A stretch of DNA of 64,000 nt from Planctomycetota bacterium (lineage in GTDB: Bacteria; Planctomycetota; B15-G4; JADJEK01). The notes below the pieces were generated by a model. The model was not told the origin of the DNA, made no database searches, and saw nothing but the letters and a program-made list of their open reading frames with translations. The stretch lies in NCBI GenBank assembly GCA_044225365.1, contig JBGAIQ010000009.1, positions 64,001-128,000 of the forward strand, read 5' to 3'. Each line of letters starts with the position of its first letter. Positions within the stretch are counted from its first letter, which is position 1. Both the position numbers and the translations under genes were made by a program. Positions 1 to 13,440 of the stretch are shown one piece after another.

Positions 1-750
1 ACGGTGATCTCCGATCAAAAGCGCAGCGAAGTGCTCGACGTACAGGATGACCGCAAGACCGAGAGTCTCGATCGCTTCTTCGGAACGCTCACGAACGCGC
101 AGCGCAAACGAATCGAGCTCGTTGCGATGGACATGTGGCCGCCGTTCATGAACTCCGTCGCGAAGAATCTCGAGGACGGTGCGAGCAAGATCGCGTTCGA
201 CAAGTTCCACGTCGCCAAGATGCTGGGAGACGCGGTGGACAAGACGCGGCGTGAAGAGAATCGAGAGCTTCTCGCCGAAGGCGACCGCTCGTTAGTCGGA
301 AAAAAGTATCTCTTTCTCAGTCGCACAGAGCCGATCGATCCGGACCAGGATCCGTTCGAGTTTCGACAGTTCACGGCGGGCATGCTGCGGACCGCGAGAG
401 CCTGGGCGATCAAGGAGACCGCGATGCACTTGTGGTCTTTCGATACGGTCCGCGCGGCGAAAGCCGCTTGGAATCGGTGGCTTGCTTGGGCGTCGCGGTC
501 GCGCCTCCCGAGCATGGTGCGCGTGGCTCGAACGGTCAGAAAGCACCTCCAGGGGATCCTCGTCGCGGTCATCCACAAGATCACGAACGCAGACGGCGAG
601 TCGATCAATGCGAAGATCCAACGGCTGAAGCAGCGAGCCTGCGGTTATAGAAACCGGCAACGCTTCCGAAATGCCATCCTCTTCCACTTCGGCGGACTGG
701 ATCTCATGCCCCGGACGCTCGCATCAACCCACACGAAAGTCTGAAGCGCC
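1..750 (+). mobile_element. ISL3-family insertion sequence, right part (left end outside window)
   Basis: The transposase ORF ends at 744 and runs into GAAGCGCC (743-750), which resembles the ISL3 right end (GAAGAGCC). An AT-rich 8-mer CGAAAACT follows as a possible target duplication. The element cuts the cassette ORF on the minus strand. Confidence 0.8.
4..744 (+). CDS. ISL3-family DDE transposase, C-terminal part (5' end outside window)
   Basis: Motifs VAMDMWPPF, FDKFHVAK and TNADGESINAKIQRLKQRACGYRN are typical of ISL3 transposases. Confidence 0.92.
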   Translation: MISDQKRSEVLDVQDDRKTESLDRFFGTLTNAQRKRIELVAMDMWPPFMNSVAKNLEDGASKIAFDKFHVAKMLGDAVDKTRREENRELLAEGDRSLVGKKYLFLSRTEPIDPDQDPFEFRQFTAGMLRTARAWAIKETAMHLWSFDTVRAAKAAWNRWLAWASRSRLPSMVRVARTVRKHLQGILVAVIHKITNADGESINAKIQRLKQRACGYRNRQRFRNAILFHFGGLDLMPRTLASTHTKV

Positions 751-1151
751 CGAAAACTAAACAACTCAACGTATCCCAACGGGCCATGTGTGTACATCGG
801 TAAGCCATCACACGGAGGCGCAAGCTGAAGCACATAGTAACCTTTCATCTCGCGGATGAACTCCGCCTCGGACTGCCGAGGGGCCTTTGATTCACGATAC
901 CGATCTCGCGCCCAGGCGTCCGCTCTTGGGTCGGTGCCGACACGCGGAGCTCGAAGTGTCTCGTACGGCGTGATCTGAATCTCGCGCCATCGTCGATCAA
1001 TGGCATCGCGATCGATGCCTCTCCACCGACGCCGCACCTTCTCGAACCAGCCAACGTTGACCGGCAAGTCCATCAGTCGCTGGAAGAGCCGAGCGAACTC
1101 TTCTTCGTGCCCGGCCTTCGGCTTGCCGATAGGATTCCAGTCGAGGCCCAT
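751..1151 (-). pseudogene. Integron cassette hypothetical protein interrupted by ISL3
   Basis: ORF MGLDWNPIGKPK... reads to YVELFSFR and then enters IS sequence at 750. It starts about 10 bp after the second attI-like core. Confidence 0.7.
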
Positions 1152-1161
1152 GCTCTGAGAG

Positions 1162-1220
1162 ACCTAGCTTGCACTTGACAGGTCTGGATAACTCATGTCC
1201 TGGACCTCACAGTCCATCCA
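1162..1220 (-). other. Second attI-like site (homologue of 6747-6807)
   Basis: acctagcttgcacttgacaggtctggataactca...ctggacctcacagtcca aligns closely with gccgaacttgcattcgaccggtctggataactca...ctggaccacacggtcca. Its core reads GCTAGGT on the minus strand instead of GTTRRRY. Confidence 0.7.
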
Positions 1221-1234
1221 GCATCGCGCTGGAA

Positions 1235-1480
1235 TGTACCTCTTTCACCGAATCGTTGCTCCTGCGAATCGTTGGCGTGATCGTCTCGAACCGAGCGCGA
1301 TCACCGGACCGGATGGCGGCCGAGCGGTGAGCCAGAGTCGGCGTCTTGCTTCGGCTGACGGCGATCGGCTTGGTAGTGAGGCCGATGAACGTCGGTGGCC
1401 TGAGCCTGCTCTCGGCCAGCCCCTCGCGAAGAACGAGGGACTCGACGTGCGGGTCCATTGCGTTCATCTCCGAGGTTCCG
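1235..1480 (+). pseudogene. Possible degraded IS91/ISCR-like transposase C-terminal remnant
   Basis: FHRIVAPANRWRDRLEP...GLDVRVHCVH loosely resembles the YHGVxAPNxxWR...GxDVxxCPxC tail of IS91-type transposases. Weak, by-eye match. Confidence 0.3.
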
Positions 1481-1524
1481 TGGTCGGCGCGAGTGGATCC
1501 ATGATGGGCGACCGTCGAGATCAA

Positions 1525-1546
1525 CCGTTGCAACGGCTGGTTCCGC
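1525..1546 (-). other. Half attC site (R''/L'' only)
   Basis: ccgttgcaacggctggttccgc matches the R''/L'' arm of the intact attC at 4610-4673 (ccgctgcaaccgattgttcggc) and lies just after the CbrC stop. No partner arm is visible. Confidence 0.55.
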
Positions 1547-1552
1547 AGCAAC

Positions 1553-2113
1553 TCATATGAAGTCGCTGTACCCGGCAACCCTTCCGCAGCGATCACACCT
1601 GAAGAGATACGCCGTGGGCGAGCCGATCCGCGAGAGTGCTTTCAGGTACTCCTGCCACGGATTCCCCTCCTCCCATCCGAGCTCTGTCCTGATGGCTTCA
1701 ATGACTTCAAGGGCCCCTGGACCGAGCTTCATAAGGTCCGAAAAGCCTGCCGGACCAAGGAAGGTCGCCGCATCTTCGCAGCAGGTCATCCATCGCTCTT
1801 GCTGCCATCCGGAAAAGCCGGGGGTTCGAAAAGCCACCTCTTCAGCGATCACACGGTCGACCTCCTCCCATGAACCGAAGCCACCGACACCAGCGAGTTC
1901 AGTGAACTCTGCACCGTACTTCTCATGCGCGCTACCGTCGACGATGCACCACGGACAGATGTCGTCCCGATGCTCCGCCTCAGAGTAGACCGGACCCGTG
2001 TAGATGTAGCCCCGAGCGCGATGACAGCATACGCAAGTCACCGGCGAACTCTGGACGCTTCCCGTGGCGACCGGATCCGGGTGATAGCGAAAACGTGGCA
2101 GAGGCTCGCTCAT
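1553..2113 (-). CDS. CbrC/UPF0167-family protein (integron cassette)
   Basis: LPRFRYHPDP, CVCC, YTGPVY, ICPWCIVDGSAHEKY, RTPGFSGWQQERW and YLFRCDRCG are CbrC-family signatures. Confidence 0.9.
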   Translation of the reverse strand: MSEPLPRFRYHPDPVATGSVQSSPVTCVCCHRARGYIYTGPVYSEAEHRDDICPWCIVDGSAHEKYGAEFTELAGVGGFGSWEEVDRVIAEEVAFRTPGFSGWQQERWMTCCEDAATFLGPAGFSDLMKLGPGALEVIEAIRTELGWEEGNPWQEYLKALSRIGSPTAYLFRCDRCGRVAGYSDFI

Positions 2114-2119
2114 ATATCT

Positions 2120-2194
2120 CGGCTTCGTCCGCCCCGCGAGATGCCGCTCGGCCGCGCGAGCGAATCGAGCGCCTGCGGAGGCGGCATGTTAGGC
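2120..2194 (-). other. Degenerate attC
   Basis: R'' (gttaggc, 2188-2194) overlaps the stop of the upstream cassette gene and an internal tccgc...gcgga stem is present. No AAC/GTT core is recognisable at the other end. Confidence 0.45.
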
Positions 2195-2656
2195 AGACAA
2201 GTCCAACAGCAAAGACGCACGCGCTCGGCAGGCCGGAAGCATGCCGGGGAGGTCCTCCCGAACTTGGGCTACGGCCCAGTCCAATCGCCCACAGTCATCG
2301 ATCAAGTGATCGAGGTAGTAACCGAAACGGACGACAGGATTTTCGAGATCCTCACCGAGGCAGTTTCCGGCCGCCCACCGAGCGAATGCGGACACGGCGT
2401 CATCGCTCGCGAGATCGAGTTCAACGGCATGCAAGCTGAACTGAGATGGGAAGTCGAGCTTGGGTGGCCGCCCGAAGCCCTCCAACTCAAAACAAGGTCC
2501 CGGGCCATGCTCCACCAGCTCGAGTAGCCACGTCGGAATCTGCGCCGGATCAGCGTGCGACATCAATACCCGCTCGGCCCAACCGGAAACCTGCTCATCG
2601 CTGAGAAAGCCTGCCGCCCAGACGGAGAGCACGCGGTTCCTCTCATCAAGAAGCAT
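2189..2656 (-). CDS. Hypothetical protein (integron cassette)
   Basis: ATG at 2656 lies just after the cassette core GTTGAGC (2672-2666) and the stop lies within R''. The cassette ends are near-complementary (GTTGAGCAG / CTGCCTAAC). Confidence 0.7.
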   Translation of the reverse strand: MLLDERNRVLSVWAAGFLSDEQVSGWAERVLMSHADPAQIPTWLLELVEHGPGPCFELEGFGRPPKLDFPSQFSLHAVELDLASDDAVSAFARWAAGNCLGEDLENPVVRFGYYLDHLIDDCGRLDWAVAQVREDLPGMLPACRARASLLLDLSA

Positions 2657-2665
2657 AGTCGTCCT

Positions 2666-2750
2666 GCTCAACGATGCCGGTCAGCGGATAGTGGCGGTCC
2701 AGATTCTACCGCGCCGACGAGCTCCACATCGCTCGCCGGCAGCTTCGGCG
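2666..2750 (-). other. Eroded attC
   Basis: gctcaac...tcagcgg (R'/L' arm) is intact. The opposite arm has decayed to gccggcagcttcggcg. Confidence 0.5.
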
Positions 2751-2789
2751 CGTGAGGTGAGTCTGCGGTCGGGCACGCGACGTCCGGGC

Positions 2790-3122
2790 GACGGCTCGTC
2801 GCCGAACGTCTCCGAGAGCGGGATGACCTCGCGATCGTGTTTCGCAATCGTGTTGACTGCGTACGGCCGGGGTTCCCGGCGTCCTTCATGGAGATGTCCG
2901 ATTCGTGCCCGTACAGAACCGCCAACTCCGGTCCTCGGGGAAGCCGGGCGCCTCGCGGTACATGACGTCGAGCCGAGCGCCATCGACGAAAAACCGAACG
3001 GCGGCGAAGCAAGGCTCGGGGCCGCAGGGTTGAACCACGACGTCGGCCGACTGGGTTGACCAAGTGATCGAGGCGCTGACCAGCGTCGCATCGTGCAGGT
3101 CGAGATCAACAAGCGAGGTCAT
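2790..3122 (-). pseudogene. Chimeric, decayed cassette: N-terminus of one hypothetical gene fused to a frameshifted DUF2185/Imm33-like gene
   Basis: MTSLVDLDLHDATL... switches to CFAAVRFFVDGARLDVMYREAPGFPEDRSWRF. The DUF2185-like continuation YAVNTIAKHDREVIPL is in another frame. Confidence 0.6.
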
Positions 3123-3128
3123 AGATCT

Positions 3129-3221
3129 GGCCAACGACACAAGCTCAGCGACGGCGGCCACGAGACGCGCCAATTGCAACCGCGACGGCCCGCCGCCGTT
3201 CGCTGCAGCGCATGGTTAGAC
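3129..3221 (-). other. attC site
   Basis: ggccaac...ctcagcg...cgctgcag...gttagac: R and L boxes with the extra-helical base in L'', 93 bp. Confidence 0.88.
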
Positions 3222-3641
3222 GGCGTGGTCATCTGGCGCATCACCCTCGCCAAGAAAGTATAGATCGAAATCGATGTCGAGACCGAGTGCGGCGACTCTG
3301 GCAAGAAGCTGCCGCGGAAGGTGAATGCCCGGTGTAAGCGTGCGGAAATAAACGGCGCAACCAATCTCAGCGGGAAAACGCGACAGGACTGCGCGAATGC
3401 CGGTGGCGTGTGCCTCCAAGGCTGTAAGCAAAGCATCAAGGTGCTCCTCGACTGGCGCGGTGAGTGGCAGCGGACTCTTGAAAGTCCAGCGGCTGTGTCG
3501 GCGCGTAACGTCCGGGCGCGTGCGCATCGGCTGACCAACAACCCACGCTTCGGTCGGCTCGAAGCCAGCCAACTGCGTGACAACGCTGGCGTCCTGACCA
3601 AACTCGAACACTGCGAAGAAAACGTGAGCGTCATGTTCCAT
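3216..3641 (-). CDS. DUF4279-like protein (integron cassette)
   Basis: MEHDAHVFFAV...GFEPTEAWVVG...SRW...HLDALL...LGLDIDFDLY fits the DUF4279 pattern. The stop is within R'' and the cassette ends are complementary (GTTAGAAGGCG / CGCCGTCTAAC). Confidence 0.75.
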   Translation of the reverse strand: MEHDAHVFFAVFEFGQDASVVTQLAGFEPTEAWVVGQPMRTRPDVTRRHSRWTFKSPLPLTAPVEEHLDALLTALEAHATGIRAVLSRFPAEIGCAVYFRTLTPGIHLPRQLLARVAALGLDIDFDLYFLGEGDAPDDHAV

Positions 3642-3655
3642 GTCGTGCGAACGCC

Positions 3656-3763
3656 TTCTAACGCGTGCAATTCTGCGGCGGCGCGAACACACCCGCGGCC
3701 GCCAAGTGTGGCAAGAGCGGCCGCGTTCCGCAACGCGCCGTCAGCAGAAATTGCTCGTTGGAC
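3656..3763 (-). other. attC site
   Basis: ttctaac...ttctgc...long internal stem...gcagaa...gttggac, 108 bp. Confidence 0.85.
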
Positions 3764-3980
3764 AGCGAGCTGAGGCCTCACATGCAAGACGTCCTGTGCC
3801 ACCGAGGCGGACGTCTAGTTCACGAAGAAACGCGCCCAGCAGCTCCGAATTGCGCCGATCAAGAGTCGGCATGGGCTCACCTGCCGCTTGATGTTCGCCT
3901 TGTGCGACGAGGCAATCTCGCAGGAGCCGGGCCGTTTCAACGTCGATTCGAAATTCAATCAGCGCGGTGTCGTCCGCCAT
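3741..3980 (-). CDS. Small hypothetical protein (integron cassette)
   Basis: 79-aa ORF filling the space between two attC sites. The ATG is 14 bp after the core, and the ORF reads into the attC. Confidence 0.55.
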   Translation of the reverse strand: MADDTALIEFRIDVETARLLRDCLVAQGEHQAAGEPMPTLDRRNSELLGAFLRELDVRLGGTGRLACEASARCPTSNFC

Positions 3981-3993
3981 TGGTTTCTTGGCT

Positions 3994-4119
3994 CTCTAAG
4001 CTCGCTGTTCAGCGGGGGCGCGCTGACATGGAAAGCGCGGCGCACGCGCATAATGAAATGACGCGTGTGCGCCGCGCCGCCATACCTTTGGCACCGACCG
4101 CTGCAACTGCCTGTTAAGC
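3994..4119 (-). other. attC site with mutated core (CTTAGAG instead of GTTRRRY)
   Basis: ctctaag...ttcagcgg...gcgcggcgcacgcg/cgcgtgtgcgccgcgc stem...ccgctgcaa...gttaagc, 126 bp. Confidence 0.8.
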
Positions 4120-4132
4120 GGCTGACGCACTG

Positions 4133-4573
4133 CTATGGATTCTGCCGACGCCCAATGCGTACGCATTCGCGCACATCGGACCATAATGCCGTGCCCCGCG
4201 CACGCGCCGCAGCAACGAACTCAGGAAGGCGGCGCGCAAGCTCCTGGATGTGCGTATCGAGTTCCGAACTGCTGCCGTAGCGCGGCGACCTCCACGGAGG
4301 CAACGTTAGCGCCTGCGCCGGCCAGCCGAGCCCCACCTCATCGTTCGAATTCCAACCACGGTTGGCATTGGACTCCGGAGCTACTGTGACGGTCATGTTT
4401 ACTCCGTGGCCCGCAGCACAATAGACGAGGAGATCGAATGGAGTACCGCGGAAGATCGCCAACATCTCCTCACGATGGCGCGGTATCCAAAGTGGACCCA
4501 CGAAGCCAATTTCGCGTGCGCCTGCGACGAGAAAAGTATCGAGGCTCGTGACGAAGTCCCTGGGCTCACTCAT
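4133..4573 (-). CDS. Hypothetical protein (integron cassette)
   Basis: 146-aa ORF between two attC sites. The cassette ends are complementary (GTTAGGCGGC / GCCGCTTAAC). Confidence 0.7.
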   Translation of the reverse strand: MSEPRDFVTSLDTFLVAGAREIGFVGPLWIPRHREEMLAIFRGTPFDLLVYCAAGHGVNMTVTVAPESNANRGWNSNDEVGLGWPAQALTLPPWRSPRYGSSSELDTHIQELARRLPEFVAAARARGTALWSDVRECVRIGRRQNP

Positions 4574-4609
4574 CGCGAACTCGCACCTTGAAATGCGCTT
4601 GCAGAAGCC

Positions 4610-4673
4610 GCCTAACGTTCTGGTTCAGCGGCGAGCCGCGCAGCGGCCCGTCCGCTGCAACCGATTGTTCGGC
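4610..4673 (-). other. attC site (canonical, 64 bp)
   Basis: Minus strand reads GCCGAAC-AATCGG-TTGCAGCGG...CCGCTGAA-CCAGAAC-GTTAGGC. Confidence 0.92.
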
Positions 4674-4679
4674 GGTTGC

Positions 4680-5591
4680 TCATTTTGTTTCCCTTCGAGC
4701 AACCCACATAGCGTGCTCACGGGAAATAGCTGTCTCGGCGTCATTAACAAACCGCGCAAGCTCAATTTCCGTCCTGACGTGCGGGGCGCGTGCAGCAATC
4801 AACGAGAGTTCTTGCGCCGCTAATCCGTATGCCTGTGCGAGCTCTTGATATCGCTTCATCGCACCCCAAGCGACAGTCGCCGATGCGAGAGTGCTGAACA
4901 CCGTTGCCGCCTTCCAAGGGAACGCAGGATATATTGCGAGCAGGACGGCTGCGCCTCCGGCCGCCGTTTGGAATACAACGAGCAGGACGAACCAGACATT
5001 ACGTTTGTTCCGATTGTCAGCCGACTTCTGCGAGTACCATGTCTGCTGTTCAACGACTCGCTGAGACAAGTAAGCATCGCGTTTTACACCGATCGCCGCA
5101 TTGCGGAGACCTTCCATGTACGACGTGACCTGCTGCCCCGTGGCATCCAGGCCAGCTAGCAGCGGAGCCAGCTGCTTGTTCTCGTTCAGCAACTCCCTTA
5201 GCGAATTCGTAAAGAGTTCAAGCGCATCCTGATACGACATCGACGACGGAAACGGATCGGCCGCACAGACAAATTTCCACGTCAGTGATTTCGCCGATTC
5301 GGCGACGGCGCGACCGGCATACCAGATTCTTTCCCATCGACGCGTTGCTAAGAGAATCGTGACCCCAACAGCCCCGAAGAAGATGATTGCTGCGATGGTG
5401 TTAACGACCCGCTTGCTCTCCACGTCAGTGAGACCAATCGATCCCACCATTGCTCCACTGAGTAGCAGCGACAGGTTGATGGTCACCCAGCGGGTATACC
5501 ACTTCTGACCAGACGAGGACGCATCATCCGCACACCGATACAGGGCGGGGAAAGATATTCGGTCAAAAGGCTTTGCCTCGAACTTTGCCAT
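4680..5591 (-). CDS. Tandem SLATT (DUF4231-like) 4-TM effector protein
   Basis: FPALYRCADDAS..GQ, WYAGRAVAESAKSLTWKF, YLSQRVVEQQTWYSQKS, KRYQELAQAYGLAAQEL and ETAISREHAMW, with two pairs of hydrophobic helices. Confidence 0.88.
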   Translation of the reverse strand: MAKFEAKPFDRISFPALYRCADDASSSGQKWYTRWVTINLSLLLSGAMVGSIGLTDVESKRVVNTIAAIIFFGAVGVTILLATRRWERIWYAGRAVAESAKSLTWKFVCAADPFPSSMSYQDALELFTNSLRELLNENKQLAPLLAGLDATGQQVTSYMEGLRNAAIGVKRDAYLSQRVVEQQTWYSQKSADNRNKRNVWFVLLVVFQTAAGGAAVLLAIYPAFPWKAATVFSTLASATVAWGAMKRYQELAQAYGLAAQELSLIAARAPHVRTEIELARFVNDAETAISREHAMWVARRETK

Positions 5592-5625
5592 GGGGGATAT
5601 CTCTGTGAAATCTCGATTATGACCG

Positions 5626-6021
5626 TCACGGGACAAGACGCCGCATGGTGCGGACGATCTCGTCAATGTCCCAGCCGACTCGCGGATGAGCTGCGAGCGG
5701 TGAGGGATAGTATTTGATGCGCCCATCGCTGTAGAGCCGAACCCCCATGATTGGCTTGCCGAGTTCGAGTGCCTTGTTCAGTTCCCAATCAACCCAGCTG
5801 CTCGTGTATGTGGTTGGCCCGTAGAGACACATGTTGAGGCTCGATCCACTGATCTTCGGAGCAATCTGCTGTTTGATGTAGTGCGCGTTGCTACTGTTGT
5901 ACGGTTCTCGAACCGAGTAGTCGGCGAATTCCAGGTCTCCGTTCTTGTTCTTCGCCTGTCCGCGAAATAGGTTGACCAATGCCAAATCTTCTTCGACAAA
6001 GCTGAGGAATGTCCGGATCAT
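5626..6021 (-). CDS. ThsB-like / DUF1863 TIR-domain protein
   Basis: RTFLSFVEED, DYSVREP, YIKQQIAPKI and SSWVDWELNKALELGKPIMGV (catalytic Glu kept). GGAGG RBS upstream. Confidence 0.88.
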   Translation of the reverse strand: MIRTFLSFVEEDLALVNLFRGQAKNKNGDLEFADYSVREPYNSSNAHYIKQQIAPKISGSSLNMCLYGPTTYTSSWVDWELNKALELGKPIMGVRLYSDGRIKYYPSPLAAHPRVGWDIDEIVRTMRRLVP

Positions 6022-6032
6022 GGAACCTCCAG

Positions 6033-6578
6033 TTAGTAGCCGCGCAACCACTTGCTCAGTAGATCAGCAGTATTGGTGTGGTGGTCGTACACCATCCATA
6101 CATTCTTCTCGTGTCCCTCTAGCGACCCCCAGACGATGCGTCGATAGAGACCGAGGTATTCCTGTTCAGCCCATTTTGTCTCGGTGACCCTTTGTACAAC
6201 CGGAAACAGTGCAACGGCGGCGGTCGACTTTTGCCCGTCTGCCAACCCGAGTTCCCACGGAATCCAGATGCTTCCCTTGCTGTTCGGTGAAACCAAGAGA
6301 ACAAGTCGTCGCATTTCACGAATGGTGTCCCTCAGAACTTGAGCGGTCTCAACCGAGGGGGGCTCGGGAAGGCGATCGTCGCCAAGATCAACGTAGATTT
6401 GTCCGCCGTGATTTTGAAGCACAAGCACTACACCGGGAACGAGATCGTTATCCTTCGATGAGTGGGAAAGGAATATGTTCTTCTCAGACTTCGACGCGGC
6501 GGCTTTCGTGAGAGTCTGCCGCTCTTGAAGCGTCCCGACAAATCCCTTTACCTCGTCAATGGTGGTGTATTGCGGCAT
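6033..6578 (-). CDS. TIR-domain protein (TIR_2-like)
   Basis: IFLSHSSKD, IYVD, LLVSPNSKGSIWIPWELGLADG (catalytic Glu kept) and QEYLGLY. Confidence 0.9.
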   Translation of the reverse strand: MPQYTTIDEVKGFVGTLQERQTLTKAAASKSEKNIFLSHSSKDNDLVPGVVLVLQNHGGQIYVDLGDDRLPEPPSVETAQVLRDTIREMRRLVLLVSPNSKGSIWIPWELGLADGQKSTAAVALFPVVQRVTETKWAEQEYLGLYRRIVWGSLEGHEKNVWMVYDHHTNTADLLSKWLRGY

Positions 6579-6746
6579 TTCTTCAACCTCAGTCGTGAGT
6601 CAGGAACAGCGCGACATCGGTCACACTGGCTGCGTCGTCGCCGTCCTCGTCTTAGACATGGTCGAGGATAACGACCTGTGCCCTCAGCTTGGTCCGATGT
6701 CCGTTGCCCGTATCGTATTCTGGGAATAGCCTGCCCTGCCTCCGTC

Positions 6747-6807
6747 GCCGAACTTGCATTCGACCGGTCTGGATAACTCACCGCCGCTGGACCACACGGT
6801 CCAATCA
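6747..6807 (-). other. attI-like primary recombination site
   Basis: Minus strand reads GAGTTATCCAGACCGGTCGAATGCAA-GTTCGGC. The core GTTCGGCG is the exact complement of R'' CGCCGAAC of the first cassette's attC. Confidence 0.78.
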
Positions 6808-6886
6808 ACGTCCGGCTGCGCTCGGTCTCATTTACCATATCCTGTCCGTTCCGCATCATTTGCGCGATCGAGTCCATGGAAGCTCG

Positions 6887-6912
6887 CTTGTTATCCAGGT
6901 CTGGATAACAAG
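6887..6912. repeat. 26-bp palindrome CTTGTTATCCAG-GT-CTGGATAACAAG
   Basis: Perfect 12-bp arms. Each arm contains the CTGGATAAC motif also present in both attI-like sites. Confidence 0.85.
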
Positions 6913-6953
6913 GCACGGAGTTCTCGTGGCAGTCCGATCCATGAACGCTCCAT

Positions 6954-7460
6954 TCATGGCTCGAGCAACCGATCCGCGGGACTCTTCACGCCGGCCGGCC
7001 CGCGATTGAGGACGTGCGTGTAGATCATGGTGGTGGCGACGTCCTTGTGCCCGAGCAGTTCTTGTACCGTGCGGATGTCGGAGCCATCCTCCAGCAGATG
7101 CGTTGCGAAGGAGTGGCGAAACGTGTGACAGCTCGCGCGCTTTGAGATTCCAGCGGCGAGGACCGCGCGGCGCACCGCCTCTTGGACGACGGATTCATGG
7201 AGATGGTGACGGCGGCGCTGTCCAGTCGCGGGATGCACGTGGAGTCGCGTCGCGGGAAACACCCACTGCCAGGGCCACTCGCGGCCGGCGTTCGAGTACT
7301 TGCGCGAAAGAGCGTGCGGTAGTTCGACCCAGCCCGCACCCGCTTCGAGATCTCCGCGATGCTGCGCACCACTCGCCGCGATTTTCGCGGCGAGCGCCGG
7401 CTTGGTCGCGATCGGCAGCATCGTGACGTGATCCTTGTCACCCTTGCCACTGACGAATGC
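6954..7460 (-). pseudogene. intI: Integron integrase, 5'-truncated
   Basis: GKGDKD, the integron-specific insert [33 protein letters not shown] and [16 protein letters not shown] are present. The N-terminal domain and box-I catalytic Arg (YGxGLR) are absent. Confidence 0.9.
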
Positions 7461-7701
7461 AGGACGGGACGCGTGACCCCCGTCGACGAGCGACTCGCTC
7501 GCGACGAAACGCGGGTACGACAACCTTGCGAAGGTCATGAATCCCATCCTCGATCTCATTCCCGCGCCCGAGCGACTCCGTCGCGCGGCGTGAAGATTCG
7601 GACGCTACGCCGAATCGCGGAGAGCGTCAAGCGGATCGCGACGGCGAAGCGCAGGACCAGGCGCGTTGGCGGCCGTCTTCGGGGAAACTCCGGAACTCCT
7701 C

Positions 7702-7752
7702 TTGTTCGGTTTTCGTTCGGGGTGTACAGTCCGGCCCGTTCGTAGTTCGTTC
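7702..7752 (+). promoter_or_regulatory. Sigma70-like promoter with two GTTC-N7-GTTC putative LexA boxes
   Basis: TTGTTC (7702-7707)-N17-TACAGT (7725-7730). Boxes at 7704-7718 and 7738-7752, upstream of imuA. Confidence 0.7.
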
Positions 7753-8066
7753 GGTGATGCCGTGAATGCCTTCCATTCCCTCCATGTGCCCCTCCTCCCT
7801 TCCTTGGACCCATCGCCGGCAAAGCCGGCGAGCGCGGTCGAAGCTGCGGGAAGGTGTCACGCGAACGATCCGATCCATTTCGTCGCGACGGCGCGCGGCC
7901 TCACGAAGGGTCTCGGCGAACCGAGCCATCGCCATCCGTGCTCGCCCATCGATTCCACCGCCAACCGCCAATCCACCCGCGGAGTCGACACCGACGCGCT
8001 TCCCAAAGCCCGCGTCGTCGCGACGTTTTTTGCCGACCGCCAACCGCCCCTCGCCCATCGCCACCC

Positions 8067-8735
8067 ATGACCGCCGCGAAACGCCTTGCCCCATCGCTCT
8101 CGTCGCCGCTCTGGTCGCCGGCCGTGTTCGCCGGGCGATTCGTCGAGCTCACGGGGCGCGCGCGGCTGACGATGGCGTTCAGTCTGATCCTGATGGCGCA
8201 GCAGAGGCGCGAGCCCGTCGCGTGGATCGCGAGTCGCGGAGATCGGGAGAGCCTGTTCTTCCCGCCGGATGCGGCGGAGTGCGGAATCGATCTCGAGGCG
8301 CTGCCCTGCGCGCGGGTCGTCGATGCGGCCGCGGCGGCGCGGGCGGCCGATCTCTTGTTGCGCTCGGGTGCGTTCGGGCTGGTAGTGCTCGATCTCGGAA
8401 ATGCGAACGAGTTGCCGATGCCGCTGCAATCGCGGCTCGCCGCGCTCGCGCAGAAACATGAAGCCGCCGTGGTCTGTGTGACGGAGAAGAGCGAGCAGAC
8501 GGCCTCGCTCAGTTCCCTCGTATCCCTGCGCGCCGAGGCCTGGCGGGACAAAGCGCGCAAGGAGGTCCGCAAGGACCGGAGCGAGGGTTTGGATTTCGAG
8601 GACGACGACTCCGCGGTCACGACCGCGAGCGCGAGCGATCGGCTCGTCTGCGGAGTCCGGATCCTCAAGGACAAACAGCGCGGACCGGGGTGGGGCCACG
8701 CGGAGTCACTCCGTGGACCGCCTGGTTTGTGTTGA
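8067..8735 (+). CDS. imuA: RecA-like mutasome protein ImuA
   Basis: AGRFVELTG, EPVAWI, FFPPDAAECGIDL, AADLLLRSGAFGLVVLD and SLSSLVSLR, with a degenerate Walker A. Lies directly before imuB; start uncertain. Confidence 0.85.
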   Translation: MTAAKRLAPSLSSPLWSPAVFAGRFVELTGRARLTMAFSLILMAQQRREPVAWIASRGDRESLFFPPDAAECGIDLEALPCARVVDAAAAARAADLLLRSGAFGLVVLDLGNANELPMPLQSRLAALAQKHEAAVVCVTEKSEQTASLSSLVSLRAEAWRDKARKEVRKDRSEGLDFEDDDSAVTTASASDRLVCGVRILKDKQRGPGWGHAESLRGPPGLC

Positions 8736-10239
8736 CGTCGTTCAACTCCCCCTCCAAGTCTTGCTGCGCTCGCGACCGGATTGGGTGAAGCACCCTTCCG
8801 CCGTCGTCGCCGAGGACAAGCCGCAGGGACGGCTCTTGTTCGCGAACGAAGCGGCGCGACAGCAGGGCGTGCTGCCGGGGCAGCGCTACGCCGCCGCGCT
8901 TTCGCTCTGCGCGGGGCTGCGGGCCGCGGTCGTCGGCGACGCGGAGATCGCGACGGCGCTCACCGAGATCGCGCGGCAGCTCGCGGAATTCACTCCGGGC
9001 GTGGAGACGTCGAAGGAGCGACCCGGCGTGTTCTGGCTCGATGCGAAGGGCCTCACCTTGCTCGAGCCCTCGTTGCCGGACTGGGCGCGACGGATCGACC
9101 AGGCGCTGCGGGCGATCGGTTTCGTGGCGCATCTCGCGCTCGGATTCCGACGCTTCGCGACGCTCGCGGCCGCGGAGACGCGACGCGGACTCGTGGTGTT
9201 CGACGACGCGAAGTCCGAGCAGGAATACTTGTTCGGGATCCTGCTCGCTCGCATCGACATCGAGCCGAAGTTGCGCGACGAGCTCGGCAAGCTCGGCATC
9301 CACACGGTCGGGGAATTCGCTCGCCTGCCGCAGGAGGGCGTGCGCTCGCGCTTCGGTGAGGACGCGGAGCGCCTGCATCGGCTCGCGAACGACCGCGTCG
9401 CGGACCCGTTCTCGCCGGCCCCCATCCATGCGCCGCTCGAGCGAAGGATCGCGTTCGAGGAGGCGTTGACCGACTCGACGTCGCTCTTGTTCTTCATCAA
9501 GCCCTTGCTGCACGAACTGCTGGACGAGCTGGCGCAACGCGGGCTCGCGCTCGAGGAATTCACCCTCCGTTTGAAGCTGGAGAACGGCGCGCCGCACGCA
9601 GCGACGCTGCGACCCGCCGCGCCCACGCTGCAGATCGGGATGCTGATGCAGCTCGCGACGCTGCATTTCGAACAGGGTTTCGCCGCGACGAAGGACGCCG
9701 GCGCGCGCCGCCCGTCGCGCAATTCGAATTCGATCGAGGAATTGTTCGTCGGCGCCCAAGGCGTCCCCGCGCGTCCCGAGCAGCTCTCGCTGTTCCGCGA
9801 GAATCCCCGGCGCGATCTCCACGCGGGAGAGCGCGCGCTCGCGCTGGTGAGGAGCCGCTTCGGCGAGACGTCGATCGGCCGCATCGTCCTCCAGGAGGCG
9901 CATCTCCCCGAGGCGCGCTTCCGCTTCGAGCCGATCACGAAGCTCGAATATCCGCAGCCCTCCCCCGCGCTCGAACGCGTCGCGATCCGCCGCATCTTCT
10001 CCCAGCCCATTCCGGTCTCGCCGCCGCGCCGCCATCCGCACGACGACGGCTGGATCCTCCACGACTTGAAGCAGGGAACGGTGACGAAGACCGACGGCCC
10101 TTATGTCGTCTCCGGCGGCTGGTGGGCGCGCGAGGTGCATCGCGAATATCGCTTCGTGCACACGCTCTCGGGGGACGTGATGTGGGTCTTCTACGACAAG
10201 AAGCGCCGCCGATGGTTCTTGCAGGGAGATCTGGAATGA
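8713..10239 (+). CDS. imuB: Y-family polymerase-like ImuB
   Basis: ANEAARQQGVLPGQ, FTPGVE, FWLDAKG, QLSLF clamp motif, GPYVVSGGWW..EVHREY and WFLQG. Confidence 0.92.
   Translation: MDRLVCVDVVQLPLQVLLRSRPDWVKHPSAVVAEDKPQGRLLFANEAARQQGVLPGQRYAAALSLCAGLRAAVVGDAEIATALTEIARQLAEFTPGVETSKERPGVFWLDAKGLTLLEPSLPDWARRIDQALRAIGFVAHLALGFRRFATLAAAETRRGLVVFDDAKSEQEYLFGILLARIDIEPKLRDELGKLGIHTVGEFARLPQEGVRSRFGEDAERLHRLANDRVADPFSPAPIHAPLERRIAFEEALTDSTSLLFFIKPLLHELLDELAQRGLALEEFTLRLKLENGAPHAATLRPAAPTLQIGMLMQLATLHFEQGFAATKDAGARRPSRNSNSIEELFVGAQGVPARPEQLSLFRENPRRDLHAGERALALVRSRFGETSIGRIVLQEAHLPEARFRFEPITKLEYPQPSPALERVAIRRIFSQPIPVSPPRRHPHDDGWILHDLKQGTVTKTDGPYVVSGGWWAREVHREYRFVHTLSGDVMWVFYDKKRRRWFLQGDLE

Positions 10240-10281: not shown

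Positions 10282-13440
<3,159 letters not shown>

Follow-up and report, generated by a model that had tools for sequence, protein, structure and literature searches.

The analysed window, a stretch of 64,000 nt from a Planctomycetota bacterium, contains a putative integron cassette at positions 4616–6752 on the minus strand. Its 2,137 nt are made up of a leader of 174 nt, three genes and an attC site. All three genes, which code for two TIR proteins (TIR1 and TIR2) and a SLATT protein, are located on the minus strand and their reading frames are intact. TIR1 and TIR2 are separated by 11 nt, TIR2 and the SLATT gene by 34 nt, and the G + C content amounts to 0.536–0.554 over positions 5001–6500 compared to 0.65–0.70 over positions 7001–10000. 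Hence, the description of three tightly spaced, co-oriented and less GC-rich genes in a first-pass annotation of the same DNA could be confirmed. The search against Rfam gave no match in positions 1–9000 of the window, and hence no group II intron or riboswitch, and the promoter and terminator scan of positions 4400–7700 resulted in hits at chance level only.

The first gene, TIR1 (thsB-like gene 1, positions 6033–6578, minus strand), encodes a protein of 181 aa of the TIR_2 type, which contains the motif WIPWE. It was detected by Pfam TIR_2 (1.2e-9) and by the PADLOC ThsB model PDLC00436, the full length of which is covered (3.1e-62), and it matches PDB entry 8btn (7.9e-19). The candidate catalytic residue Glu109 lies within the motif SxWxPWELG, which is invariant in eight homologues. 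For TIR2 (thsB-like gene 2, positions 5626–6021, minus strand), the predicted ORF at 6051–5626 opens with a GTG at 6051, but translation probably begins with the ATG at 6021, which has a GGAGG ahead of it, resulting in a protein of 131 aa of the ThsB_TIR type with the motif WVDWE. This protein is matched by Pfam ThsB_TIR (3.3e-18) and also by PADLOC ThsB models, as well as by PDB entries 8fz9 (1.3e-11) and, at about 2e-3, the ThsB structures 6lhy and 9b7d. Its Glu80 is the sole invariant residue across 33 SLATT-linked ThsB_TIR proteins. The two TIR proteins share hardly any similarity (26% over 82 aa).

The third gene (thsH-like effector gene, positions 4680–5591, minus strand) encodes an all-helical membrane protein of 303 aa. 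Pfam assigns it a tandem of SLATT_3 (1.2e-37) and SLATT_1 (1.1e-31) plus DUF4231, in agreement with the NCBIfam matches NF033610 and NF033634. For the three proteins together, the earlier domain calls (TIR_2-like, ThsB-like TIR and tandem SLATT) are thus supported by Pfam, PADLOC and NCBIfam; no PADLOC 2023 model matches the SLATT protein itself. Its proposed topology of four transmembrane helices could be verified in part, as three hydrophobic spans are clear (residues about 35–55, 59–86 and 198–224), but the fourth is weakly hydrophobic. The AF2 model of the protein has a pLDDT of 90.2 and a pTM of 0.83. In the PDB, neither the sequence search nor the Foldseek search with this model (E ≤ 0.001) gave a match, and the wide search with VIA-align revealed generic helical hairpins only, with a best Z of 8.8 over about 60 residues. 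The complex prediction for three copies of the protein reached a score of 0.02 against a mark of 0.42, a result that carries no information on oligomerisation. No similarity between the N- and the C-terminal SLATT halves could be found by BLASTP, and thus nothing points to a recent duplication within the protein.

At the 3′ end of the cassette, an attC site was identified at positions 4610–4674 (minus strand), with R'' CGCCGAAC at 4674–4667 and R' GTTAGGC at 4616–4610, so that the cassette ends at the G at 4616. As single-stranded DNA, the site folds into one imperfect hairpin of -28.1 kcal/mol (z -5.7), which was equalled by none of 200 shuffled sequences. A bulged G and a bulged A on the R''-L'' arm are the extrahelical bases, and the orientation of the site matches that of the cassette ORFs. 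The attC assignment is founded on motif and fold checks. Within positions 4680–6752, none of the R''-L'' or L'-R' motifs of the array is present, and the gaps of 11 and 34 nt are too short for an attC, so no attC remnant lies between the genes. The statement of the first-pass annotation that no internal attC is visible therefore holds.

On the other side, an attI-like region was assigned to positions 6746–6953 (minus strand), downstream of the intI stop codon. It contains a GTTCGGC core starting at 6753, with the crossover G/TT at 6753/6752, and GTTATCC motifs at 6909–6903 and 6777–6771 with an inverted copy at 6896–6890. At 6753–6746 (minus strand), 200 nt past the intI stop, GTTCGGCG is the exact complement of the R'' sequence CGCCGAAC. 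This 8-mer is commonplace, occurring 16 times in the window where about 11 copies would be expected, and it is its position that counts. Since it is common and also present in the attI of the relative L096, the left boundary can be placed only to within a few bases. In 12 of 19 loci of relatives, a GTTAGSY/GTTCGGC core with AAT at -7 to -5 is located 99–271 nt past the intI stop, the cores having been picked partly by eye, and the similarity among the intI loci of the relatives stops at the attI core. A 33-nt repeat (6748–6780 and 1163–1195) was considered as the ends of an IS element, but this was rejected in favour of an attI-like site, because relatives carry the motif and the core after intI. 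The anatomy and the fold of the sites thus agree with the earlier proposal of a single cassette of about 2.1 kb, which starts at attI and ends in an attC with an R'' complementary to the start of the cassette.

The integron integrase gene (positions 6954–7559, minus strand) is truncated and comprises the C-terminal half only. Its product matches NCBIfam TIGR02249 with 4.7e-67 and 226.6 bits, which is below the cut-off of 265 bits because only model positions 154–315 are matched; models of XerC/D reach only about 86 bits. The N-terminal half could not be found by a search of the whole genome, nor could any other match of IntI grade in the 94%-complete assembly. As no intact integrase lies beside the attI, the integron is not complete. 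By the usual integron rule, the cassette in first position would be the most recent one, as suggested in the first-pass annotation. Since the only integron integrase match of the assembly is without its N-terminal half, the cassette array is probably frozen. The gene points in the same direction as the cassettes, and neither this nor the minus-strand location of the genes was mentioned in the first-pass annotation. The same inverted layout is found in relatives, together with a full-length intI.

The array continues downstream of the cassette at positions 1525–4115 (minus strand), with R''-L'' motifs at 4115–4098, 3217–3200 and 1542–1525 and L'-R' motifs at 4015–3995 and 3151–3131. Because the attC patterns were built from these very sites, their enrichment is circular; long and short attCs could not be aligned end to end with MAFFT. 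The ORFs of the downstream cassettes have either no family match or matches to DUF4279 or a UPF0167/CbrC-like family. Furthermore, the array is interrupted by an ISL3 element and a second attI-like copy is present.

The distribution of the genes was analyzed by a genome scan, in which 553 relatives of the SLATT protein were found and the best 80 loci were kept. In 73 of these 80 loci, a co-oriented ORF could be assigned directly upstream of the SLATT gene; it encodes a TIR protein in 59 cases and a non-TIR protein in the remaining 14. The second-upstream ORF is a TIR gene in 16 of 58 cases, and two consecutive TIR genes are present in 13 loci of the same set. Position and number of the TIR genes vary among the SLATT loci, with TIR genes upstream, downstream and on the opposite strand. 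In the loci L057 and L063, homologues of TIR1 (47–53%) are located upstream of a ThsB_TIR gene and a SLATT gene. SLATT homologues that share all three Pfam domains were recovered from Bacillota, Actinomycetota, Cyanobacteriota and Pseudomonadota. The plasmid search resulted in 81 records with DUF4231 homologues of about 30–35% identity; in the one record inspected, the homologue is paired with a TIR gene and is not part of an integron. Closer to the source organism, the SLATT family was detected in 2 of 60 relatives and the TIR1 family in 2 of 400 further genomes from the phylum, a patchy spread of the kind expected when an accessory gene has been acquired. In the two relatives of the same order that carry this SLATT family, no TIR gene lies within 1.5 kb. 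Elsewhere, the TIR1 family is found with a caspase-domain protein as partner (L115) and in a multi-TIR array (L114).

A search for conserved TIR-TIR-SLATT synteny, which the first-pass annotation had proposed, revealed the triad in the same order and with 86–91% nucleotide identity in two metagenome defence islands (L088 and L089), in both cases outside integrons. In L088, the homology covers window positions 6623–4680 plus 4672–4613, a homologous attC lies 3′ of the triad, and the neighbouring gene encodes a PvuRts1I-like nuclease. In L089, it covers positions 6725–4680 and no recognisable attC is present at the triad, which has a CD-NTase and patatin CBASS pair and another TIR gene as neighbours.

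The combination of TIR and SLATT proteins was named and tested as type VII Thoeris (ThsB and ThsH) by Yirmiya et al. (December 2025 preprint, 10.64898/2025.12.03.692087) with systems from Pseudohongiella, an Alteromonadales scaffold and B. licheniformis. According to the text of the preprint, three SLATT-associated TIRs produce cADPR when phages infect and not otherwise, carriers of the system are poisoned by added cADPR, canonical cADPR elicits a response of the SLATT protein ThsH itself, and ThsH is predicted to form membrane filaments. The locus described here shares with these systems a small TIR gene directly upstream of a SLATT membrane effector, which has no separate sensor domain and is thought to sense the TIR product itself, as well as the occurrence in many phyla. 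Stand-alone TIRs with a conserved Glu, an adjoining co-oriented SLATT gene and TIR-SLATT adjacency across genomes are all present. In contrast to the two-gene operons in the preprint text, it contains two divergent TIRs and is carried as an integron cassette. Its effector is a tandem of SLATT_3 and SLATT_1, and the likeness to type VII is one of domains and gene adjacency. A ThsA with SIR2-SLOG, or with Macro plus transmembrane domains, as in type I/II Thoeris, is absent, since none of the three proteins has a Pfam match to SIR2, SLOG or Macro domains. CBASS was rejected because no CD-NTase (SMODS) was found by Pfam in the cassette or the neighbouring cassette ORFs. The retron-SLATT and TA assignments were rejected because Pfam detects no reverse transcriptase gene and no antitoxin gene, respectively.

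Other known systems resemble the locus in single features. In type I Thoeris with several thsB genes, as described for Bacillus dafuensis by Ofir et al. (10.1101/2021.01.06.425286), two dissimilar TIRs likewise serve one effector, and divergent ThsBs of one locus sense different phages and make the same signal; there, however, the effector is a SIR2-SLOG ThsA and the signal a cADPR isomer, whereas a SLATT protein is found here. The ‘Tragantia’ cassettes brc22 and brc23 of mobile integrons protect against phages (Kieffer et al., 10.1101/2024.07.02.601719). They also carry a ThsB homologue and a non-ThsA protein of about 300 aa, the predicted fold of which resembles the transmembrane protein Deva and which the text of that study does not name as SLATT, and they likewise have homologues in defence islands with a pseudo-attC. 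‘Tragantia’ comprises two genes in class 1 mobile integrons of enterobacteria, whereas the cassette described here has three genes and belongs to a chromosomal array in an environmental bacterium. SLATT effectors of CBASS were predicted, and a conserved TIR-SLATT neighbourhood was noted, by Aravind and colleagues (Viruses 2022, PMC9503650); unlike in CBASS, there is no CD-NTase/SMODS gene in the cassette and the TIRs would be the signal source. The integron itself corresponds to the ‘inverted integrase’ group of chromosomal integrons named in PMC3575428 in the direction of intI and cassettes and in the location of attI after the intI stop, but differs in that only the C-terminal half of intI is left and in the ISL3 break and the second attI-like copy. 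As in the sedentary integrons described as defence biobanks (10.1101/2024.07.02.601686), defence genes are carried as cassettes.

With a probability of about 80%, the locus encodes an abortive-infection system resembling type VII Thoeris, with two ThsB-like TIRs as sensor/synthase proteins and a ThsH-like SLATT protein as membrane effector, and is carried as a single attI-proximal cassette of 2.14 kb in a chromosomal integron with an inverted, N-terminally truncated integrase. The Thoeris-like anti-phage function suggested earlier is thereby supported by the domains, the TIR-SLATT linkage and the literature on TIR and SLATT proteins. The chemistry of the signal, the effect on the membrane and the anti-phage protection are drawn by analogy from this literature. 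Phage infection would activate one or both TIRs, which would use the conserved Glu to make a cyclic form of ADP-ribose from NAD+, most likely canonical cADPR, as the signal. The SLATT protein would bind this signal with its helical cytoplasmic portion, then oligomerise and breach the inner membrane, and the cell would be killed or arrested ahead of phage release. The two divergent TIRs would most likely broaden the range of phages that are sensed. Due to the other partners of the TIR1 family (L114 and L115), the signal of TIR1 need not be cADPR. As the family of TIR1 is rare and modular, SLATT proteins are usually partnered by the TIR2 type and the effector fuses SLATT_3 with SLATT_1, a two-input system is conceivable, though improbable. 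In such a system, the two SLATT halves would read chemically different TIR products, which would serve AND/OR logic or guard against phage sponges for one signal.

Other functions of the three proteins have to be weighed against the signalling of the TIRs to the SLATT protein. Short bacterial TIR proteins can be plain NADases, NAD+-depleting effector TIRs in CBASS, Pycsar, pAgo and Avs are set aside by Yirmiya et al., and nothing in the sequence fixes the TIR product. It is nevertheless very unlikely that the TIRs are the effectors and the SLATT protein acts at the membrane independently or as an accessory, without being gated by a TIR-made signal: the tight linkage, seen in 59 of 73 loci among the best 80 from 553 relatives, points to proteins that work as a pair, TIR1 and TIR2 are both small stand-alone ThsB-type proteins, and in the tested type VII systems cADPR alone is toxic and is made by the TIRs only upon infection. 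The second mechanism offered by the first-pass annotation, a gating of the SLATT protein by direct contact with the TIRs and without a diffusible signal, would suit the translational closeness of the genes. The chance of this is considered to be very low, because the variable gene order and TIR number between loci suit a diffusible signal, Glu80 as the sole invariant residue of TIR2 points to an enzyme activity rather than a scaffold role, and cADPR in the medium halts the growth of type VII carriers (Yirmiya et al.). An addiction module resembling toxin-antitoxin systems, which stabilises the array, with the SLATT protein as the toxin and no anti-phage role, is extremely unlikely. SLATT proteins are potentially lethal and chromosomal integrons often carry TA cassettes, but no antitoxin-like gene is located at this cassette, and the TIR/SLATT family is tied to defence genes in L088 and L089 and was tested as a phage defence by Yirmiya et al.

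The cassette structure itself can also be doubted, as the three genes might be fused cassettes with lost attCs or a fragment of a defence island between an attI-like site and an attC. Multi-gene cassettes are a minority, GTTCGGCG is frequent, the integrase is broken, and the triad sits outside integrons in L088 and L089, the latter without a recognisable attC. The location outside integrons has its parallel in the defence cassettes of Kieffer et al., for which homologues outside integrons with or without a (pseudo-)attC are described. Moreover, the triad is kept together in the same order with 86–91% nucleotide identity in three contexts, and the homology stops near the cassette ends. The homologous attC in L088, the complementarity of R'' and cassette start, and the short gaps without an attC remnant also favour a single cassette, and an origin from several pieces is therefore regarded as unlikely.

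The novelty expected in the first-pass annotation did not hold, since TIR and SLATT proteins without a separate sensor already constitute type VII Thoeris (Yirmiya et al.), and a second TIR is a known feature of Thoeris (Ofir et al.) which was found in 13 loci of this family. The kind of system is already known and the locus opens no new question. What it adds is a clean case, with its three genes intact, of signalling-based defence that travels as an integron cassette of several genes, in an environmental lineage outside the proteobacteria whose integrons are of inverted layout. Type VII Thoeris with two TIRs is found repeatedly, in several phyla, and a construct of 2.1 kb is compact enough to ask whether two divergent TIRs make one signal for the SLATT protein.

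All features of the locus (intI fragment, the three genes and the cassette sites) are located on the minus strand. The ORF of the integron integrase fragment (7559-6954) is followed by an untranslated stretch, which separates its end at 6954 from the first gene, encoding a TIR protein of 181 aa (TIR1, 6578-6033). The ORF of the second TIR gene (TIR2) opens at 6051 and ends at 5626, with a likely ATG start at 6021 that is preceded by GGAGG. The third gene encodes a SLATT protein of 303 aa (5591-4680); its ORF could open at 5726, but solely with an overlap into the TIR2 gene. The gaps amount to 11 nt between TIR1 and TIR2 and 34 nt between TIR2 and SLATT. The G + C content is 0.536-0.554 over 5001-6500 (triad region), 0.65-0.70 to the right (imuA-imuB-dnaE2 region) and about 0.59-0.65 in the left cassettes.

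TIR1 matches Pfam TIR_2 (1.2e-9) and, over its full length, the PADLOC ThsB model PDLC00436 (3.1e-62), and its closest solved structure is PDB 8btn (7.9e-19). TIR2 was assigned to Pfam ThsB_TIR (3.3e-18) and also matches several PADLOC ThsB models; the closest solved structures are 8fz9 (1.3e-11) and then the ThsB structures 6lhy and 9b7d (about 2e-3). The two TIR proteins share only 26% identity over 82 residues. The motifs WIPWE (TIR1) and WVDWE (TIR2) described in the first-pass annotation were found again, with a conserved Glu in each. Glu80 of TIR2 is the sole invariant column among 33 ThsB_TIR proteins encoded beside SLATT genes, and SxWxPWELG is invariant across eight TIR1 homologues. 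For the SLATT protein, SLATT_3 (1.2e-37), followed by SLATT_1 (1.1e-31), and DUF4231 were detected, and no matching model was found in PADLOC 2023. Its hydrophobicity profile contains three clear spans and a weaker fourth. AlphaFold2 predicted a confident all-helical model from a 27-row alignment (pLDDT 90.2, pTM 0.83), for which sequence and fold searches of the solved structures retrieved no specific relative.

A preprint of December 2025 describes operons of TIR and SLATT genes as type VII Thoeris, consisting of ThsB and ThsH, with verified systems from Pseudohongiella, an Alteromonadales scaffold and Bacillus licheniformis (10.64898/2025.12.03.692087). There, the TIRs are reported to make canonical cADPR in a phage-dependent manner, added cADPR is toxic, and ThsH is predicted to form a filament-like membrane assembly with pockets between protomers. 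The TIR-SLATT neighbourhood had been noted earlier, with SLATT as a membrane effector regulated by ADPr derivatives (PMC9503650). On the basis of domains and gene order, the system, which has a pair of ThsB genes and is carried on an integron cassette, is assigned to type VII Thoeris, the SLATT protein being likened to ThsH by its domains. The Thoeris-like function initially proposed is right in kind, and the option that SLATT itself senses the signal corresponds to the published model, as follows from the type VII data and the ThsH prediction. In type I Thoeris, a single locus can hold several divergent thsB genes, each of which senses different phages while all make the same signal (10.1101/2021.01.06.425286).

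SLATT relatives were collected by scanning prokaryotic genomes, one for each species, and the best 80 of 553 loci were retained. The longest co-oriented ORF ending at most 350 nt upstream of the SLATT gene was taken as upstream partner and could be picked in 73 of the 80 loci. A TIR domain is present in 59 of these 73 ORFs; the remaining 14 have no family match or belong to an unrelated family and were counted against the TIR-SLATT reading. Within the same best 80 of 553, 16 of 58 second-upstream ORFs contain a TIR, and 13 loci have two consecutive TIR ORFs directly upstream of SLATT. TIR-like ORFs just downstream of SLATT were found by tblastn in, e.g., L009, L071, L080 and L081, as judged by similarity to the window TIRs used as queries alone. 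Members of the TIR1 family occur in L009 (62% identity, downstream of SLATT), L063 (53%) and L057 (47%). A TIR1-type gene precedes the ThsB_TIR and SLATT genes in L057 and L063, the latter with one extra ThsB_TIR between, so that conservation of the triad extends to other phyla. In three SLATT loci a TPR-S protein is encoded at the second-upstream position, which fits the remark that SLATT and TPR-bearing effectors occasionally share one operon (10.64898/2025.12.03.692087).

This SLATT family is also present in two relatives of the same order (L120, G021:C89; L121, G022:C7) with no TIR within 1.5 kb, which likewise counts against the TIR-SLATT reading. Upstream of their tandem-SLATT genes lie ORFs of 401 and 476 aa without Pfam family instead, and SLATT in L120 additionally adjoins an adenosine deaminase gene; these neighbours are possible non-TIR partners of the effector family. 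On a conjugative IncFII/IncR plasmid of Klebsiella quasipneumoniae (L112, NZ_CP034132.1), a DUF4231/SLATT homologue of about 30% identity is convergent with a 134-aa TIR gene, and the pair adjoins a resolvase-type recombinase. Such homologues are present in 81 plasmid records.

TIR1 homologues with 46-47% identity were found downstream of a caspase-domain protein in a type IV Thoeris-like locus (L115, G415:C36) and in a multi-TIR array of L114 (G168:C1), in the order GmrSD nuclease, TIR1-like, ThsB_TIR, a 160-aa ORF without family match and TIR_2. Because the family has other partners in these loci, TIR1 is a modular TIR, whose product need not be cADPR. The distribution of both families among relatives is patchy: SLATT was found in 2 of 60 relatives and in 0 of 11 same-family genomes searched, and TIR1 in 2 of 400 other genomes of the phylum.

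A 65-nt site 3′ of the SLATT stop codon comprises R'' CGCCGAAC (4674-4667) and R' GTTAGGC (4616-4610). The predicted fold of its single-stranded DNA is a single long, imperfect hairpin with the bulged bases on the R''-L'' arm (-28.1 kcal/mol, z -5.7), a stability that none of 200 shuffled sequences reached. The site has attC anatomy and is oriented as expected for the triad ORFs. Further R''-L'' motifs like that of the cassette attC lie at 4115-4098, 3217-3200 and 1542-1525 on the minus strand, and its L'-R' motif is present at two further sites. Neither motif occurs inside the three-gene unit; as both were built from these very sites, only this absence is informative. The octamer GTTCGGCG at 6753-6746 is the exact complement of R'', as would be the case had the start of the cassette and its attC originally been a single R box. 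Since this 8-mer is frequent (16 copies in the GC-rich window versus about 11 expected), its evidential weight rests on its position. The first-pass observation of a single cassette is confirmed, including the complementary ends and the lack of an internal attC. Another GTTCGGCG on the cassette strand (2800-2807), in a long gap between an ORF end at 2886 and an ORF start at 2671, may be a degraded cassette junction.

The intI fragment matches TIGR02249 only at positions 154-315 (226.6 bits, cut-off 265), and XerC/D models score about 86 bits. Neither the N-terminal half nor other IntI-grade matches were found in the 94%-complete assembly. IntI C-halves are present in 30 of 61 related genomes, this one included. 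For the attI comparison, 330 nt 3′ of the intI stop were taken from the loci of 19 relatives, 12 of which contain a GTTAGSY or GTTCGGC core 99-271 nt past the stop. AAT precedes the core at -7 to -5 in 13/13, 11/13 and 11/13 rows (window included), an agreement that is somewhat inflated because the cores were chosen among several candidates partly by eye. Beyond the core, the relatives' sequences are unrelated; several of the loci apparently have an ATG-initiated reading frame that opens shortly after it on the strand of intI. In the window the core lies 200 nt past the stop; the same-family relative L096 has 15 nt in common with it across the core, so that the crossover side of those bases is uncertain by a few bases. 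By the usual rule, the attI-proximal cassette would be the most recently integrated one. The intI fragment is co-oriented with the cassettes, an orientation that characterizes one particular group of integrons. The layout of attI and intI would place the locus in this 'inverted integrase' group, named in PMC3575428. Because the integrase is truncated, the array is probably frozen. About 300 nt beyond the intI fragment, a plus-strand gene set named from its translations by eye begins (ImuA-like 7854-8735, ImuB-like 8713-10239, DnaE2-like 10282-13440), and this junction may be connected with how intI lost its 5′ half.

The other cassette ORFs (1553-4573) encode proteins of 146, 79 and 160 aa without family match, a DUF4279 protein (3692-3216) and a UPF0167/CbrC-like protein of the colicin E2 tolerance family (2113-1553, below cut-off). 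An isolated R''-L'' half attC (1542-1525) directly follows the CbrC-like gene and precedes a second attI-like copy (1163-1195), which is 85% identical to 6748-6780 over 33 nt, with GCT in place of GTT in the core and weaker similarity along some 170 nt upstream of it (about 1196-1400). This copy might be left over from a second integron or from a duplication. An ISL3-family transposase (445-aa ORF across the window start; window 4-744) interrupts the array and apparently truncates a 168-aa ORF at 1151-645. The array probably continues past this element, because a further R''-L'' attC-like motif is located some 2.2 kb to the left of the window (L116, G000:C71:50001-64800).

The triad was found in the same gene order on two metagenome contigs. 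L088 matches the window with 91% identity over 6623-4680 and, in a separate block, over the attC (4672-4613); its homologous attC has R'' CACCGAAC and R' GTTATGG. L089 is 86% identical over 6725-4680 and has no recognisable attC. Outside these blocks neither is similar to the window. The neighbours of the triad in L088 are a PvuRts1I-like nuclease, an HTH protein, a DDE transposase fragment and a tyrosine recombinase, the last without tblastn match to the IntI fragment; the L089 neighbours are another TIR gene and a CBASS pair of CD-NTase and patatin. Because L088 and L089 share the unit and have defence neighbours, the triad moves as a block in the company of defence genes. This pattern is likewise reported by Kieffer et al. 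for the defence cassettes found in mobile integrons, among them the phage-protective 'Tragantia', composed of ThsB and a membrane protein of about 300 aa (10.1101/2024.07.02.601719). Tragantia resembles the present system in pairing ThsB with a membrane protein of about this size and in its integron cassette.
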